Origin: Escherichia coli
Lineage (GTDB): Bacteria > Pseudomonadota > Gammaproteobacteria > Enterobacterales > Enterobacteriaceae
Assembly: GCF_003334315.1 (NCBI RefSeq)
Contig: NZ_QOWR01000024.1
Reading direction: 5' to 3' (one strand)
DNA: 64,000 nucleotides
Below, piece after piece: positions 1 through 64,000 of this stretch. How positions within the stretch are numbered: the first letter of the stretch is position 1; each line of letters starts with the position of its first letter. The position numbers and the translations under genes are program-made. The notes beneath the pieces were generated by a model. That model was not told where the DNA came from. It worked only from the letters and a program-made list of their open reading frames with translations, and made no database searches.

Positions 1-110
1 CCGTTGATCTGGAACGCGTCATGACCGCGCGCAAGAAATATTTTACAACATCGGCGGAGAAGCAAAGTGCTAAAGCCGCCAGGGAGAAAAAGCAGGAGGC
101 TGCTGAATGA
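1..110 (+). CDS. casA: CasA/Cse1 (Cascade large subunit), C-terminal fragment truncated by window start
   Basis: Open frame from position 3 to TGA at 108-110 with no internal stop; stop overlaps casB ATG (ATGA); position upstream of cse2 in type I-E operon. Confidence 0.55.
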   Translation, partial: VDLERVMTARKKYFTTSAEKQSAKAAREKKQEAAE

Positions 111-643
111 GTATTGTAAAAGAGGAGCACAAAGCCACGCTGCGCAAATGGCACGAGGAATTGCAGGAGAAACGTGGCGAACGTGCCAGTCTGCGGCGTA
201 GTACGACGGTTAATGATGTTTGTCTGACGGATGGATTTCGCCTGTTTCTGAAGAACAGACAAATAAAGTGGCAGGATGAACCTGAGTGGCGTATCACCGC
301 ACTGGCGCTGATAGCCGCAGTTAGCGCCAATGTTAAAGCTATTGATGAACGGCAGCCTTTTGCCGCGCAGCTGGCGGCGGTAATGTCAAAGGGGCGTTTT
401 ACTCGTCTGTCGGCAGTAAAAACACCGGATGAATTACTGCGCCAGTTACGCCGCGCAGTCAGATTATTAAACGGTTCCGTCAATCTTGACTCTCTGGCAG
501 AGGGGGTCTTCCGTTGGTGCCAGGAGAGCGACGACCTGCTCAATCATCACCGCCGCCAGCAGCGGCCAACCGAATTTATCCGTATCCGCTGGGCGCTGGA
601 ATATTACCAGGCTGGCGACGCCGATAACGAACAAAATCAATAA
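107..643 (+). CDS. casB: CasB/Cse2 (Cascade small subunit), 178 aa
   Basis: ORF immediately upstream of cas7e/cas5e/cas6e/cas1/cas2; size typical of Cse2; synteny-based call. Confidence 0.75.
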   Translation: MSIVKEEHKATLRKWHEELQEKRGERASLRRSTTVNDVCLTDGFRLFLKNRQIKWQDEPEWRITALALIAAVSANVKAIDERQPFAAQLAAVMSKGRFTRLSAVKTPDELLRQLRRAVRLLNGSVNLDSLAEGVFRWCQESDDLLNHHRRQQRPTEFIRIRWALEYYQAGDADNEQNQ

Positions 644-654
644 AGGACTATCTC

Positions 655-1710
655 ATGACAACATTTATTCAGCTTCATTTGTTAACCGCTTACCCTGCTG
701 CCAACCTTAACCGTGATGATACCGGTGCGCCAAAAACTGTGGTGCTGGGTGGAGCAACGCGTCTGCGCGTTTCCTCGCAAAGTCTGAAATGTGCGTGGCG
801 CACTTCTGCACTTTTTGAACAGGCACTGGCGGGCCATATTGGTATTCGCAGTGGGCGTATTGCGCGTGAGGCGGCAACTATCCTGATTGAGAAAGGAATC
901 GAAGAGAAAAAAGCCATCGAATGGGCGGCAAAAATTGCAGATTATCTTGGGAAAGCTAAAAACGACAAAAAACCAAAAGATCCGCTCACTAACGCCGAAA
1001 CTGAACAGTTAGTCCATATCAGCCCGGCAGAATTTGACGCCGTAAAAGTGCTGGCCCATCAGCTTGCAGAAGAAAAGCGCGCGCCAAAAGAGGAAGATCT
1101 CGCGTTGTTACGCAAAGACCGTATGGCGGTAGATATTGCCATGTTTGGTCGTATGCTGGCGAATAAACCCGAGTTTAATGTTGAAGCCGCCTGCCAGGTA
1201 GCGCACGCATTTGGTGTCAGTGAAATGATTGTCGAAGATGATTTTTTCACCGCCGTTGATGATTTGCGCCAGGCTTCTGAAGATGCCGGTGCCGGGCATC
1301 TTGGTGAAACCGGATTCGGTTCTGCACTGTTCTACACCTATATCTGCATTGATAAAGATCTGCTGGTCGAAAACCTTGGCGGTGACGAAGCGTTAGCTAA
1401 TCAGACCATACGTGCCTTTACGGAAGCCGCACTTAAAGTCTCCCCAACCGGCAAACAGAACAGCTTTGCCAGCCGTGCCTACGCCTCCTGGGCGCTGGCA
1501 GAAAAAGGCACCGATCAACCGCGTTCTCTGGCGGCAGCTTTCTATGAACCCATTAATGGCACCCGTCAGTTAGAGGTGGCGGTGCAGCGTATTACAACTC
1601 TTCGCGAAAATATGAATACGGTCTACGAACAGAAGACCGATTACGCAAGTTTTGACGTGATGAACAAACAGGGAAGCATGAAGGACGTGCTGGACTTTAT
1701 CTGCGCGTAA
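655..1710 (+). CDS. casC: CasC/Cas7e (Cascade backbone subunit), 351 aa
   Basis: N-terminus MTTFIQLHLLTAYPAANLNRDD typical of Cas7e; operon position. Confidence 0.85.
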   Translation: MTTFIQLHLLTAYPAANLNRDDTGAPKTVVLGGATRLRVSSQSLKCAWRTSALFEQALAGHIGIRSGRIAREAATILIEKGIEEKKAIEWAAKIADYLGKAKNDKKPKDPLTNAETEQLVHISPAEFDAVKVLAHQLAEEKRAPKEEDLALLRKDRMAVDIAMFGRMLANKPEFNVEAACQVAHAFGVSEMIVEDDFFTAVDDLRQASEDAGAGHLGETGFGSALFYTYICIDKDLLVENLGGDEALANQTIRAFTEAALKVSPTGKQNSFASRAYASWALAEKGTDQPRSLAAAFYEPINGTRQLEVAVQRITTLRENMNTVYEQKTDYASFDVMNKQGSMKDVLDFICA

Positions 1711-1720
1711 GGGGCGGCTT

Positions 1721-2467
1721 ATGAGCCAATATCTGATTTTTCAGCTTCATGGGCCGATGGCGTCCTGGGGTGTCGATGCTCCAGGTGAAGTTCGTCATAC
1801 CCATGAACTTCCTTCGCGCTCAGCATTGCTGGGGCTACTGGCTGCCGGGGTAGGGATTCGGCGTGATGATACCGAACGCTTAAACGCGTTTAATCGCCAC
1901 TATTCACTGGTGGTTTGCGCCAGCCGTAACCCGCGCTGGGCACGGGATTATCACACGGTCCAGATGCCAAAAGAGGTGCGTAAAGCACGTTATTTCAGCC
2001 GTCGCGAAGAGTTGAGCGACCCTGAGCTTTTGAGCGCGATTATCTCCCGGCGCGACTACTACACCGATGCCTGGTGGATGGTGGCGGTGGCAACAACCCC
2101 CGATGCGCCTTACAGCCTCGAACAGTTGCAGGACGGTTTACGCCATCCGGTTTTTCCGCTTTATCTGGGGCGAAAAAGTCATCCGCTGGCGTTACCACTT
2201 GCGCCGTTACTGCTCGAAGGCAACGCGTCTGATGTCTTACGTAACGCATACCAACAGTATCAGGATCGTTTCCGCGAACTGAAAGTCTCACTCCCGAAAC
2301 TTCAGGATGAATGCTGGTGGGAAGGGGAGCACGATGGTTTGGTCGCAAGCAAAATATTACGCCGCCGGGATGTTCCTTTAAATCGTCAGCAGTGGCTGTT
2401 TGGGGAACGCACCATCAATCAGGGGCCGTGGCTCAGCAAGGAGGAACCATGTACCTCTCAAGAATAA
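1721..2467 (+). CDS. casD: CasD/Cas5e, 248 aa
   Basis: N-terminus MSQYLIFQLHGPMASWG resembles Cas5e (K-12 CasD MRSYLILRLAGPMQAWG); operon position. Confidence 0.85.
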   Translation: MSQYLIFQLHGPMASWGVDAPGEVRHTHELPSRSALLGLLAAGVGIRRDDTERLNAFNRHYSLVVCASRNPRWARDYHTVQMPKEVRKARYFSRREELSDPELLSAIISRRDYYTDAWWMVAVATTPDAPYSLEQLQDGLRHPVFPLYLGRKSHPLALPLAPLLLEGNASDVLRNAYQQYQDRFRELKVSLPKLQDECWWEGEHDGLVASKILRRRDVPLNRQQWLFGERTINQGPWLSKEEPCTSQE

Positions 2468-3095
2468 CCTTACATACCGGCCAGCTTTCGCCTGCGCAGT
2501 TGCTGCATCTGGTGGATCGCGGTGAATATGTGATGCATCAGTGGTTGTGGGATCTCTTCCCTGGCGGCAAAGAAAGGCAATTTCTTTATCGTCGGGAAGA
2601 ACTCCAGGGCGCGTTTCGCTTTTTTGTCCTCTCGCAGGAACGCCCGGCAGAAAGTGAAACTTTCACCATCGAATGCCGGTCATTTACGCCCGAGCTGAGT
2701 ACCGGACAACAACTTTGTTTCAACCTGCGGGCGAATCCAACAATCTGTAAAGCGGGCAAGCGCCACGATCTGCTGATGGAGGCGAAACGGCAGGTGAGGG
2801 GACAGGCGGAAGGAAGTGATGTCTGGTTGCATCAACAACAGGCGGCGCTGGACTGGCTGGCAGCGCAGGGGGAAAGAAGTGGTTTTACACTACTGGATAC
2901 CTCGGTTGATGCCTACCGACAACAACAACTCCGGCGGGAAAACTCCTGGCAACTGATCCAGTTCAGTAGTGTGGATTATACGGGGATGCTTACGGTCACC
3001 GATCCTGGGTTATTTCTGCAACGTCTCAGTCAGGGGTATGGCAAAAGCCGGGCGTTCGGTTGTGGTCTGATGCTGATCAAACCTGGAGCAGAGGC

Positions 3096-3099
<4 letters not shown>
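2449..3099 (+). CDS. casE: CasE/Cas6e crRNA endoribonuclease, 216 aa
   Basis: Start moved to internal ATG 2449 (MYLSRITLHTG, matches Cas6e N-terminus MYLS...) preceded by AGGAGG at 2438-2443; overlaps casD 3' end. Confidence 0.85.
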
Positions 3100-4309
<1,210 letters not shown>

Positions 4310-4404
4310 GTTATCCGTTCTTTAAAAATAAGGAAATGTTTTAATTTAGTTGGTAGATTGTTGATGCGGAATAAATTTGTTTAAAACAGTTATGTATGCT
4401 TAGT
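4310..4404 (+). promoter_or_regulatory. CRISPR leader (AT-rich, between cas2 stop and first repeat)
   Basis: 95-bp AT-rich segment directly upstream of first repeat, downstream of cas2; standard leader position for I-E arrays. Confidence 0.6.
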
Positions 4405-4921
4405 GTGTTCCCCGCGCCAGCGGGGATAAACCGGAGCGTAGAGATTCTCGAAACCGATCCGGACGGTGTTCCCCGCGCCAGCGGGGATAAACCGAATAAA
4501 TAATAATCCAGTAGCCCCATGTATTAGTGTTCCCCGCGCCAGCGGGTATAAACCGGTAATAAAAAATATTCTATTTCTGCTGAATCAGTGTTCCCCGCGC
4601 CAGCGGGGATAAACCGCTTGCGAGCAAAAGATCCAGGCCGAGAAAGACGTGTTCCCCGCGCCAGCGGGGATAAACCGCGATAACCGCGTCAGTATTGGAC
4701 AGGATATCAGTGTTCCCCGCGCCAGCGGGGATAAACCGAATCTATTGTGAATTTGAAATGGTCCAGCACTGTGTTCCCCGCGCCAGCGGGGATAAACCGG
4801 GTAAAAACACGGTCTGAACCGACATTCATGTGTGTTCCCCGCGTCAGCGGGGATAAACCGGGCGCACTGGATGCGATGATGGATATCACTTGGAGTTCCC
4901 CGCCCCTGCGGTAGAACTCCC
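4405..4921 (+). CRISPR. Type I-E CRISPR array, 9 repeats (29 bp) and 8 spacers (32 bp each)
   Basis: Repeat GTGTTCCCCGCGCCAGCGGGGATAAACCG starting at 4405, 4466, 4527, 4588, 4649, 4710, 4771, 4832, plus degenerate terminal copy GAGTTCCCCGCCCCTGCGGTAGAACTCCC at 4893; period 61 bp; single-base variants in repeat 3 (GGGTATAAA) and repeat 8 (GCGTCAG). Confidence 0.97.
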
Positions 4922-13667: not shown

Positions 13668-13805
13668 AACGTGAGGAAATACCTGGATTTTTCCTGGTTA
13701 TTTTGCCGCAGGTCAGCGTATCGTGAACATCTTTTCCAGTGTTCAGTAGGGTGCCTTGCACGGTAATTATGTCACTGGTTATTAACCAATTTTCCTGGGG
13801 GATAA

Positions 13806-14945
13806 ATGAGCGCGGGAAGCCCAAAATTCACCGTTCGCCGCATTGCGGCTTTGTCACTGGTTTCGCTATGGCTGGCAGGCTGTTCTGACACTTCAAATCC
13901 ACCGGCACCGGTCAGCTCCGTTAATGGCAATGCGCCTGCAAATACCAATTCTGGTATGTTGATTACGCCGCCGCCGAAAATGGGGACGACGTCTACAGCC
14001 CAGCAACCGCAAATTCAGCCGGTACAGCAGCCACAAATTCAGGCTACTCAACAACCGCAAATCCAGCCAGTGCAGCCAGTAGCTCAGCAGCCGGTACAGA
14101 TGGAAAACGGACGCATCGTCTATAACCGTCAGTATGGGAACATTCCGAAAGGCAGTTATAGCGGCAGTACCTATACCGTGAAAAAAGGCGACACACTTTT
14201 CTATATCGCCTGGATTACTGGTAACGATTTCCGTGACCTTGCTCAGCGCAACAATATTCAGGCACCATACGCGCTGAACGTTGGTCAGACCTTGCAGGTG
14301 GGTAATGCTTCCGGTACGCCAATCACTGGCGGAAATGCCATTACCCAGGCCGACGCAGCAGAGCAAGGAGTTGTGATCAAGCCTGCACAAAATTCCACCG
14401 TTGCTGTTGCGTCGCAACCGACAATTACGTATTCTGAATCTTCGGGTGAACAGAGTGCTAACAAAATGTTGCCGAACAACAAGCCAGCTGCGACCACGGT
14501 CACAGCGCCTGTAACGGTACCAACAGCAAGCACAACCGAGCCAACTGTCAGCAGTACATCAACCAGTACGCCTATCTCCACCTGGCGCTGGCCGACTGAG
14601 GGCAAAGTGATCGAAACCTTTGGCGCTTCTGAGGGGGGCAACAAGGGGATTGATATCGCAGGCAGCAAAGGACAGGCAATTATCGCGACCGCAGATGGCC
14701 GCGTTGTTTATGCTGGTAACGCGCTGCGCGGCTACGGTAATCTGATTATCATCAAACATAATGATGATTACCTGAGTGCCTACGCCCATAACGACACAAT
14801 GCTGGTCCGGGAACAACAAGAAGTGAAGGCGGGGCAAAAAATAGCAACCATGGGTAGCACCGGAACCAGTTCAACACGCTTGCATTTTGAAATTCGTTAC
14901 AAGGGGAAATCCGTAAACCCGCTGCGTTATTTGCCGCAGCGATAA
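13806..14945 (+). CDS. nlpD: Murein hydrolase activator lipoprotein NlpD (LysM + M23 domains), 379 aa
   Basis: Lipobox LAGC, Q/P-rich repeats, C-terminal M23 peptidase-like domain; rpoS promoter is known to lie inside this gene. Confidence 0.92.
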
Positions 14946-15007
14946 ATCGGCGGAACCAGGCTTTTGCTTGAATGTTCCGTCAAGGGATCACGGGTAGGAG
15001 CCACCTT

Positions 15008-15646
15008 ATGAGTCAGAATACGCTGAAAGTTCATGATTTAAATGAAGATGCGGAATTTGATGAGAACGGAGTTGAGGTTTTTGACGAAAAGGCCTTAGTA
15101 GAAGAGGAACCCAGTGATAACGATTTGGCCGAAGAGGAACTGTTATCGCAGGGAGCCACACAGCGTGTGTTGGACGCGACTCAGCTTTACCTTGGTGAGA
15201 TTGGTTATTCACCACTGTTAACGGCCGAAGAAGAAGTTTATTTTGCGCGTCGCGCACTGCGTGGAGATGTCGCCTCTCGCCGCCGGATGATCGAGAGTAA
15301 CTTGCGTCTGGTGGTAAAAATTGCCCGCCGTTATGGCAATCGTGGTCTGGCGTTGCTGGACATCCTGGCCGATGAAAAAGAGAACGGTCCGGAAGATACC
15401 ACGCAAGATGACGATATGAAGCAGAGCATCGTCAAATGGCTGTTCGAGCTGAACGCCAAACAGCGTGAAGTGCTGGCACGTCGATTCGGTTTGCTGGGGT
15501 ACGAAGCGGCAACACTGGAAGATGTAGGTCGTGAAATTGGCCTCACCCGTGAACGTGTTCGCCAGATTCAGGTTGAAGGCCTGCGCCGTTTGCGCGAAAT
15601 CCTGCAAACGCAGGGGCTGAATATCGAAGCGCTGTTCCGCGAGTAA
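15008..15646 (+). CDS. rpoS: RNA polymerase sigma S (RpoS) allele with in-frame internal deletion; 212 aa instead of 330 aa, predicted non-functional
   Basis: N-terminal 118 aa ([21 protein letters not shown]...[11 protein letters not shown]) and C-terminal 94 aa ([14 protein letters not shown]...[10 protein letters not shown]) match RpoS; regions 2.2-3 (e.g. YATWWIRQ) absent. Confidence 0.9.
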
Positions 15647-15661
15647 GTAAGCATCTGTCAG

Positions 15662-15694
15662 AAAGGCCAGTCTCAAGCGAGGCTGGCCTTTTCT
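15662..15694 (+). terminator. rpoS rho-independent terminator
   Basis: 12-bp stem AAGGCCAGTCTC / GAGGCTGGCCTT (one G-U), 4-nt loop, followed by TTTCT, 16 bp after rpoS stop. Confidence 0.65.
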
Positions 15695-15703
15695 GTGCAC
15701 AAT

Positions 15704-15739: not shown

Positions 15740-17104
15740 TCAAATTACCGCCCATACGCACCAGGTAATTAAGAATCCGGTAAAACCGAGAATGGTCGTT
15801 AACACTGTCCAGGTTTTCAGACCGTCTGCTACCGACAACCCCAGATATTTGGTCACAATCCAGAACCCTGAGTCATTAATATGTGACGCACCAAGCCCAC
15901 CAAAGCAGGCTGCCAGCGTCACCAATACGCACTGAATCGGATTCAATCCCATCACCGCTTCTGAGAGTAACCCGCCGGTTGTCAGTATTGCTACGGTTGC
16001 TGACCCCTGCGATGCACGCAGCGCCAGTGAAATAATAAATGCGGCTGGTAACAGAGGCAGGTCAATCATTTGTAGCATGTTGGCAAGGGCTTTGCCGACG
16101 CCCGATTCCACCAGCACTTTGCCAAATACCCCTCCAGCACCAGTAACCAAAATCACTACCGCCGCAGTGGGAAGGGCTGAGCCCATAATGTCGCTGGTGT
16201 GTTGTAAGCTCCAGCCGCGACGTAAAGCCAATAACCAGAATGCCAGCACCAGCGCAATCATTAGAGCTACCATTGGTGAGCCGATCAGCTGTAGCGTACC
16301 AAGCAGGGGATGCGAAGGCGGCATCAGTGTTGCGGAAACCGTACCCGCCATGATAATCGCGATAGGAATAACAATTAGCGAGGTGACCAGCGCGACGCCC
16401 GGTGGATTTATTTTATCGCTTAATTTTGTCGCGCCTTCCTCACTGGCCGGAGCCAGTTGCATCTGTTCCAGTACTTCCACCGACATCGCATATTGGTGCT
16501 TATTGATTATTTTCGCTGCAAAGTAGCCAACAATCCCTACGGGAATAGAAATCGCAATACCGATGATGGTTAGCCAGCCGATGTCTGCGTGGAGTAACCC
16601 CGCTGCGGCGACAGGGCCTGGATGCGGCGGTACCGCCACATGTACAGTTAGCATGATCCCAGCGACAGGCAGGCCAAATTTGAGTGGCGATATTTTGGCA
16701 ACCTTGGCAAAACCGTAAATGATTGGCGCAAGAATAATAAAGCCGACATCAAAGAAGACGGGAATACCGAGGAAGAACGCTGCCAGAGTCAGCGCAGCGA
16801 TAGTTCGTTTGTCACCTAACTTGCGACTGAAATAATTAGCCAGTGACTCTGCACCACCAGAGTGTTCGATCATACGCCCCAGCATAGCGCCCAGACCAAT
16901 AATAATAGTGACGGAACCAAGCACACCGCCCATCCCGGCGATCATCACTTTACCCACTTCGCCCGCCGGTATACCCGCCGCAAGTGCGACTAACAGGCTG
17001 ACGAGGAGCAGAGCAACGAATGGTTGTACCTTTGCCTTGATGACCAGCAGCAACAGCATGATTACGCCAGCTAACGCAATGCATAACAATGTAATTGTGG
17101 ACAT
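15740..17104 (-). CDS. ygbN: GntP-family transporter, 454 aa
   Basis: Highly hydrophobic, GntP-like N-terminus; K-12 position adjacent to rpoS. Confidence 0.85.
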   Translation of the reverse strand: MSTITLLCIALAGVIMLLLLVIKAKVQPFVALLLVSLLVALAAGIPAGEVGKVMIAGMGGVLGSVTIIIGLGAMLGRMIEHSGGAESLANYFSRKLGDKRTIAALTLAAFFLGIPVFFDVGFIILAPIIYGFAKVAKISPLKFGLPVAGIMLTVHVAVPPHPGPVAAAGLLHADIGWLTIIGIAISIPVGIVGYFAAKIINKHQYAMSVEVLEQMQLAPASEEGATKLSDKINPPGVALVTSLIVIPIAIIMAGTVSATLMPPSHPLLGTLQLIGSPMVALMIALVLAFWLLALRRGWSLQHTSDIMGSALPTAAVVILVTGAGGVFGKVLVESGVGKALANMLQMIDLPLLPAAFIISLALRASQGSATVAILTTGGLLSEAVMGLNPIQCVLVTLAACFGGLGASHINDSGFWIVTKYLGLSVADGLKTWTVLTTILGFTGFLITWCVWAVI

Positions 17105-63561: not shown

Positions 63562-63654
63562 GGTGAGGTGGCCGAGAGGCTGAAGGCGCTCCCCTGCTAA
63601 GGGAGTATGCGGTCAAAAGCTGCATCCGGGGTTCGAATCCCCGCCTCACCGCCA
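63562..63654 (+). tRNA. serV: tRNA-Ser (anticodon GCU), 93 nt with long variable arm
   Basis: GGTGAGGTGGCCGAGAGGCTGAAGGCGCTCCCCTGCTAAGGGAG...CGCCTCACCGCCA; anticodon loop CT-GCT-AA; encoded CCA. Confidence 0.95.
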
Positions 63655-63657
63655 TTT

Positions 63658-63734
63658 GCATCCGTAGCTCAGCTGGATAGAGTACTCGGCTACGAACCGA
63701 GCGGTCGGAGGTTCGAATCCTCCCGGATGCACCA
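63658..63734 (+). tRNA. argV: tRNA-Arg (anticodon ACG), 77 nt
   Basis: GCATCCGTAGCTCAGCTGGATAGAGTACTCGGCTACGAACCGAGCGGTCGGAGGTTCGAATCCTCCCGGATGCACCA. Confidence 0.95.
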
Positions 63735-63849
63735 TATTCTACGTACTTTCAGCGATGAAGGTATGGAAGAGGTGGCGGTAATAACCGCAGGCACCAGGGA
63801 GGATAACGTTGCTTTAGCAACGGCCCGAAGGGCGAGCCGCAAGGCGAGT

Positions 63850-63868
63850 AATCCTCCCGGATGCACCA
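63850..63868 (+). other. 19-nt exact copy of tRNA-Arg 3' end in inter-tRNA spacer
   Basis: AATCCTCCCGGATGCACCA identical to the 3' end of argV (63716-63734). Confidence 0.8.
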
Positions 63869-63932
63869 TCTCTTACTTGATACGGCTTTAGTAGCGGTAT
63901 CAAAAAATCTGCAGTAAAGTAAGTTTCCCGAT

Positions 63933-64000
63933 GCATCCGTAGCTCAGCTGGATAGAGTACTCGGCTACGAACCGAGCGGTCGGAGGTTCGAATCCTCCCG
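63933..64000 (+). tRNA. argY: Second tRNA-Arg (ACG) copy, truncated by window end
   Basis: Identical to the first 68 nt of argV; window ends inside the T-arm. Confidence 0.9.

Follow-up and report, generated by a model that had tools for sequence, protein, structure and literature searches.

A 354-bp in-frame deletion between 12-bp direct repeats of Escherichia coli rpoS, probably inactivating and apparently recurrent

The window considered here is the whole stretch of Escherichia coli DNA that was analysed, 64,000 nt in length, and at the locus of interest within it the gene order is pcm-nlpD-rpoS-ygbN...mutS. Identification of the shortened gene as rpoS is by orthology, its position between nlpD and the variable rpoS-mutS segment being conserved and its sequence near-identical to that of reference genes outside a single gap. 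The features of the locus, in window coordinates, are these:

13806-14945, plus strand: nlpD, intact, 379 codons, upstream of rpoS (from the list of open reading frames)
15008-15646, plus strand: rpoS open reading frame with the deletion (Δ354), RpoS residues 1-118 joined to 237-330
15008-15349, plus strand: retained 5′ part, codons 1-114 (acidic N-terminus, region 1.2 and region 2.1, from Pfam on the intact protein)
15350-15361, plus strand: deletion junction, the one remaining copy of the 12-bp direct repeat GCGTTGCTGGAC, codons Ala-Leu-Leu-Asp (from the alignment and repeat map)
15362-15646, plus strand: retained 3′ part, codons 237-330 and stop (end of region 3.2, then region 4 with its −35-binding helix-turn-helix, from Pfam; identical to the reference)
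15665-15696, plus strand: rpoS terminator, a hairpin whose stem is at 15665-15688 with a T-run after it (−27.8 kcal/mol on RNA folding, z = −5.8; identical to the references)
15740-17104, minus strand: ygbN, directly downstream of rpoS

Elsewhere the window holds, at 1-4310, Type I-E CRISPR-Cas genes from inside casA through cas2e, and at about 4400-4860 a CRISPR array whose repeat-spacer units are 61 nt long; identity to strain 3059 is only 94.5% in the cas region, as against about 98% elsewhere in the window. At the other extremity, 63562-64000, the serV-argV tRNA cluster begins (tRNA-Ser GCT and then copies of tRNA-Arg ACG) and is cut by the end of the window, and the minus-strand tRNA-Arg (TCG) that ARAGORN places at 63678-63749, overlapping this cluster, is probably spurious. 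Two other closed genomes have lesions of their own at this locus: strain B19374 (H1, NZ_CP142915.1) has an annotated IS200C transposase beneath its rpoS-region match, and strain Br_112_kylling (H93, NZ_CP182371.1) has ISVsa5 in its nlpD-rpoS region, with nlpD listed twice.

The rpoS frame runs without interruption from the ATG at 15008-15010 to the TAA at 15644-15646, 639 nt or 212 codons, which bears out the original prediction, made from the sequence alone, of an open frame for 212 amino acids instead of 330. Mechanically the frame grows to 224 aa by way of an in-frame ATG 36 nt upstream (window 14972-15007); alignment to the reference proteins favours the annotated start at 15008. Alignment with the rpoS genes of CP53 (L001:1709-2701) and MG1655 (L002:709-1701), both of them full-length and neither sharing the 212-aa architecture, gives a single gap of 354 columns with the 12-bp repeat at the junction, as had been anticipated, and establishes that residues 1-118 and the last 94 are indeed those of RpoS. 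All of the retained bases (639/639) are identical to the rpoS of CP53, an intact and common E33-type allele, and outside the gap the sole mismatch between MG1655 and the window is at nt 97, the familiar Q33E polymorphism. The junction motif had also been said to occur twice in full-length RpoS, and so it does: the 12-mer is at nt 343-354 and again at nt 697-708 of the intact gene, with ALLD at residues 115-118 and 233-236 of the protein. How widely is the intact arrangement shared? A 121-nt junction probe matches in two pieces over 475 bp (= 121 + 354) in 5,406 of the 5,413 complete E. coli genomes.

What does such a protein keep of a sigma factor? Pfam divides intact RpoS into region 1.2 (residues 56-88), region 2 (94-163), region 3 (174-248) and region 4 (262-315), and the residues lost are 119-236 (equivalently 115-232), which in these coordinates amounts to 45 of the 70 residues of region 2 and 63 of the 75 of region 3. 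The initial description of the lesion as a removal of regions 2.2-3 stands for the greater part of regions 2 and 3 and goes too far at the edges, for region 2.2 keeps its first residues and region 3 its last 12, and regions 1.2, 2.1 and 4 stay as well. Region 2.2 is the main core-binding helix, contacting the β′ coiled coil of core polymerase; regions 2.3-2.4 supply the helices for promoter melting and −10 recognition, region 3.0 makes the extended −10 contact and region 3.2 is the finger. Most of 2.2, all of 2.3-2.4, 3.0-3.1 and most of 3.2 are missing from the mutant. Structures of the E. coli σS holoenzyme are on record (5IPL, 6KJ6, 6OMF and others).

Profile searches tell the same story from another direction. 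Precomputed Pfam matches of the mutant protein are to regions 1.2 and 4 only, in place of the full set of four group-2 sigma domains (1.2, 2, 3 and 4). The NCBIfam RpoS equivalog NF004207 scores it at 312.5 bits, in an N-terminal and a C-terminal stretch and below the cutoff of 394 (intact CP53 scores 604.6), and TIGR02394 at 216.7 bits, again in two stretches and below the cutoff of 378.7 (480.7 for intact CP53). The Δ354 gene is thus rpoS by descent, and its protein does not pass as a functional RpoS equivalog. TIGR02937 matches mutant residues 124-199 only, at profile positions 94-165, which is its σ4 half. Classification as a two-domain sigma of ECF type was considered and rejected, regions 2.3 and 2.4 being deleted and σ2 incomplete. 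Within the deleted segment a single substitution in region 2.2, I128N, is enough for an rpoS-null phenotype although the protein is abundant (Spira et al. 2011, PMC3240573). Since one substitution there is already null, and most of regions 2 and 3 are lost here, the Δ354 product is, judging by its sequence, very probably inactive and the strain RpoS-deficient.

The signals for expression have been spared. The main rpoS promoter is located within nlpD, and a long 5′ UTR precedes rpoS. From 13791 to 15349, a segment that spans all of nlpD, there are zero differences between the window and strain DAM, whose rpoS is intact. The rpoS terminator was missed by a simple promoter/terminator scan, and it was folding that recovered the hairpin; an Rfam scan at gathering thresholds gave no match near rpoS. 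As promoter region, 5′ UTR and terminator are intact, a truncated rpoS mRNA should be made and translated.

DAM also bears on the age of the lesion. Comparison of all 64 kb with the complete genome of that strain turns up 20 SNPs and two 1-bp indels besides the 354-bp deletion, the rpoS of DAM having its full 993 bp. With so near-identical a genome retaining the intact gene, the deletion is derived, and recent, on this background. At both of the 1-bp indels the base is missing in the window: one is at 4383, just upstream of the CRISPR array, and the other at 13790, between pcm and nlpD and 16 bp short of the nlpD ATG. A homopolymer error in one or other assembly could account for either. A mutator contribution through a defect in mutS was considered for the window and rejected, its mutS being the intact mutS of DAM with no difference.

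At the junction itself the breakpoints fall in an exact direct repeat of which one copy has been kept. This repeat is the longest exact direct repeat in rpoS, and that both breakpoints lie exactly on it exceeds chance. The repeat as such is another matter: the probability that the longest repeat is of at least 12 bp is 0.17 when the protein is fixed and synonymous codons are shuffled, and 0.08 when codon order is shuffled, and the idea that it is statistically remarkable or designed was rejected on these codon shuffles (P = 0.08-0.17). It is a coincidence of two ALLD motifs using the same codons, and because both copies encode ALLD in the same reading frame the deletion between them is in frame. 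In the mechanism envisaged a nascent strand, or a single-strand annealing intermediate, would misalign between the two copies of the 12-mer 354 bp apart, and the misalignment would remove one copy and the 342 bp in between. Folded as single-stranded DNA the inter-repeat segment is a little more stable than its shuffled versions (z = −2.3), without a clean stem joining the repeats.

The anatomy is not confined to this one repeat. All exact rpoS repeats of at least 8 bp were listed and the junctions and products predicted from them were searched for in public assemblies, where 9 of the 10 deletion products predicted for the other repeats exist; the contig counts given with them below are not counts of events, mixing as they do mutation rate, spacing, clonal sampling (O157) and possibly retained function of Δ96:

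Δ273: 10-bp repeat, 8 contigs, 239 aa
Δ30: 10-bp repeat, 2 contigs
Δ68: 9-bp repeat, 69 contigs, the frameshifting 131-aa ‘truncated RpoS’ of O157:H7
Δ96: 9-bp repeat, 190 contigs, 298 aa, still named RpoS
Δ97: 9-bp repeat, 2 contigs
Δ456: 9-bp repeat, 1 contig
Δ216: 8-bp repeat, 1 contig
Δ173: 8-bp repeat, 4 contigs
Δ585: 8-bp repeat, 1 contig

The sole predicted product absent from public assemblies is Δ237, from an 8-bp repeat (0 contigs). Contig counts are not ordered by repeat length, Δ68 and Δ96, with 9-bp repeats at short spacing, exceeding Δ354. As Δ96 and Δ30 remove N-terminal residues only, function may have been retained in both. Closed genomes contain the junctions of Δ354 (1), Δ273 (1), Δ68 (2) and Δ96 (1), those with deletions other than Δ354 being the genomes of GB089 and F765 (H87 and H89), CEC01311 (H88) and CEC08123 (H90), with proteins P0034, P0050 and P0049. 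These other deletions share the anatomy of Δ354 and differ from it in their shorter repeats (8-10 bp), in their spacings and, for some, in shifting the frame.

The proposal that the window's lesion is a deletion between short direct repeats is therefore supported by these nine products, and also by the recurrence of Δ354 itself in at least 8 unrelated backgrounds, described below. The recurrence pattern appears to fit the signature of RecA-independent slippage between short direct repeats. The classical lacI deletions between such repeats are reportedly due to Albertini, Farabaugh and Miller, and Bzymek and Lovett are said to have treated RecA-independent deletion between short direct repeats in terms of slipped-strand mispairing. 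Like deletions of the lacI type, Δ354 has its breakpoints in an exact repeat, keeps one copy and recurs at the longest repeat; unlike the experimental lacI spectra it is known from genome sequences.

For the distribution of Δ354 a 40-nt probe across the junction (window 15336-15375) was used, with which intact rpoS is unable to seed a megablast match. Just one of the 5,426 complete genomes responds, that of strain 3059, a blood isolate from Houston whose genome is closed (NZ_CP103559.1; L003:19673-20311). That the window is simply this genome was considered and rejected: the flanks diverge by 2.1%, and in 3059 a MarR/decarboxylase insert of 2.9 kb separates rpoS from ygbN. The Δ354 gene of 3059 differs from that of the window at 3 silent sites, distributed to either side of the junction. 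Over 2.6 kb many complete genomes match 3059 at 100% identity and yet have rpoS intact.

Contigs recorded with exactly this 212-aa protein number 32, and some carry the label E. coli O157. Eight representative loci were examined and all have the identical junction. The backgrounds that carry it, at least 8 of them distinct, include phylogroup A-like, D-like, B2-like and O157-like ones, and with the exception of the draft closest to the window, L004 (GCA_012773515.1, a 68-kb contig identical to the window over 6.7 kb, with rpoS on the opposite strand of the record), carriers differ pairwise by 18-168 SNPs per 6.7 kb. Four rpoS-mutS architectures are found among them, namely rpoS-ygbN, rpoS-MarR-decarboxylase-ygbN, rpoS-MarR-decarboxylase-pphB-mutS and rpoS-flavodoxin-lactamase_B-ygbN. 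Their rpoS genes fall into five silent-site haplotypes, with sites differing on both sides of the junction, the nearest of them 73 bp before the repeat and 17 bp after it. Put into full-length coordinates these are the haplotypes, specific to phylogroups, that Ferenci et al. tabulated for the intact rpoS genes of ECOR strains; thus the gene of 3059 has C264T/T270C/G819A, as does ECOR50, and that of another carrier, L010, has T163C/C264T/C732T/G819A/C987T, as does ECOR55. The diversity of haplotypes and the existence of wild-type relatives argue that Δ354 arose many times and is not one spreading allele, and on this comparison it has recurred independently in at least 8 E. coli backgrounds.

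Why the same lesion should be met again and again brings in selection as well as mutation. The trade-off behind GASP and SPANC alleles of rpoS has been a subject of the Ferenci, Schellhorn, Stoebel and Denamur laboratories. Δ354 resembles the natural and laboratory polymorphism so described in the gene affected, in its predicted null outcome and in the selection presumed (PMC7527412, PMC2700278, PMC3074542, PMC3240573, PMC3484664); it differs in that the GASP/SPANC alleles in the literature consulted are mostly point mutations, small indels and frameshifts, whereas Δ354 is a large in-frame deletion with a translatable protein made of two fragments. In pathogenic E. coli rpoS nulls are selected on succinate at about 1e-8 (Dong et al. 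2009, PMC2700278), and they emerge in stabs and on strain transfer (PMC3240573). In carefully handled collections they are rare (about 2%) and laboratory-acquired, whereas the ECOR collection was kept in stabs (Snyder et al. 2012, PMC3484664), and a review (PMC7527412) agrees that nulls are selected, in storage included. With Δ354, the 212-aa product would not form a working σS holoenzyme, and the strain would act as an rpoS null, with low catalase HPII, no glycogen staining and poor stationary-phase stress resistance, while growing better on poor carbon sources. Nulls would be favoured under nutrient limitation and in stab or other long-term storage, and selection for loss of RpoS acting together with a mutationally favoured deletion would lead to the same Δ354 being sighted repeatedly.

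The allele is already known. Ewers et al. 2014 (Gut Pathog 6:37, PMC4209514) reported from PCR and Sanger sequencing a 354-bp rpoS deletion in ECOR6 and placed it at ‘position 298 to 651 bp’. With numbering that begins at the 3′ end of the gene, which is 993 bp long, these positions are nt 343-696, exactly the segment missing from the window. ECOR6 and the window also share the ‘pattern I’ arrangement of the rpoS-mutS region, that of MG1655, in which ygbN follows rpoS directly. The report (PMC4209514) gives the deletion one sentence, without mechanism, repeat, recurrence or phenotype, and we found no paper that notes the repeat or the recurrence of Δ354, nor a phenotype for it in the literature searched on rpoS variants. 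It is absent from the 21 laboratory-selected Suc++ rpoS mutants of Dong et al. 2009 (0/21) and from the 22 sequenced ECOR strains of Ferenci et al., and no direct observation of its emergence in the laboratory was found in the literature consulted. What is added here to the literature found is modest: recurrence in at least 8 backgrounds, a predictive repeat map and an annotation pitfall.

Could the deletion have been made by an assembler rather than a cell, the source rpoS being full-length and the two 12-bp repeats collapsed into one? The assembly that best matches the window, L004, is after all itself a read-derived draft. Against this, the k-mers usual in assembly are all longer than 12 bp, this junction is also present in the closed genome of 3059 and in at least 8 independent assemblies from different lineages, and in ECOR6 the same deletion was found by PCR and Sanger sequencing (PMC4209514), so that an artefact of assembly or sequencing seems to us vanishingly improbable. 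Nor does a single ancient deletion allele, spread by descent or homologous recombination with no recurrent mutation, fare well, even though all carriers share the exact junction and the 212-aa protein, for an identical junction is expected anyway from deletion mediated by a repeat. Such an allele would have to be reconciled with carriers up to 168 SNPs per 6.7 kb apart in four architectures, with each carrier's own phylogroup-specific silent sites closing to within 73 bp on one side of the repeat and 17 bp on the other, and with near-identical relatives that have intact rpoS in two of the backgrounds (DAM, and the relatives of 3059); we regard it as extremely unlikely.

A different kind of alternative accepts the deletion and its recurrence and asks whether the product is more than a null. 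A stable 212-aa mini-sigma of regions 1.2-2.1 plus 4 might escape RssB/ClpXP and be selected as a modulator, for example by occupying the β-flap, by titrating Crl or other σS partners, or by binding −35-like DNA. The determinant for RssB recognition is around K173 of RpoS, in the part deleted here, which might let the product accumulate, and Crl is a σS partner. Consistent with a product that matters are the intact frame, start, 5′ UTR, promoter region and terminator, the completeness of region 4 and the frequency of Δ354, one of the commoner rpoS deletions between repeats. An open frame follows of itself, however, with both repeats encoding ALLD in the same frame, and selection for a product is not needed when the frameshifting Δ68 (69 contigs) is at least as common. 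Loss of three helices of the σ2 bundle should, moreover, destabilize what remains of the N-terminal part, and PGAP and NCBIfam see nothing but RpoS fragments. Selection for such a mini-sigma is in our estimation very unlikely. By far the best account, and one that we hold to be highly probable, is that the rpoS of the window is a spontaneous loss-of-function allele formed by repeat slippage, RpoS-null and under selection.

That account has a practical side. The PGAP/RefSeq name for the Δ354 product is ‘sigma factor-like helix-turn-helix DNA-binding protein’ (WP_064562037.1; P0001), with neither gene name nor pseudogene flag: the name is not RpoS because the NCBIfam RpoS score is below cutoff, and with the frame open the NCBI pipeline flags no defective rpoS. 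Surveys of RpoS status by gene name or pseudogene flag miss Δ354 genomes, which the 40-nt junction probe detects directly.

More likely than selection for a mini-sigma is that the 12-mer, which nearly all E. coli rpoS genes share, is an intrinsic hotspot for deletion, Δ354 recurring because the longest repeat of the gene brackets its core-binding and −10-recognition regions. If so, Δ354 would mark RpoS loss in a way that can be predicted and is easy to screen for. The lesion may have arisen in storage rather than in the host. For the source strain itself the meaning is that it is very probably RpoS-deficient, with stress, biofilm, virulence-related and metabolic phenotypes that should not be read as those of its lineage in general.
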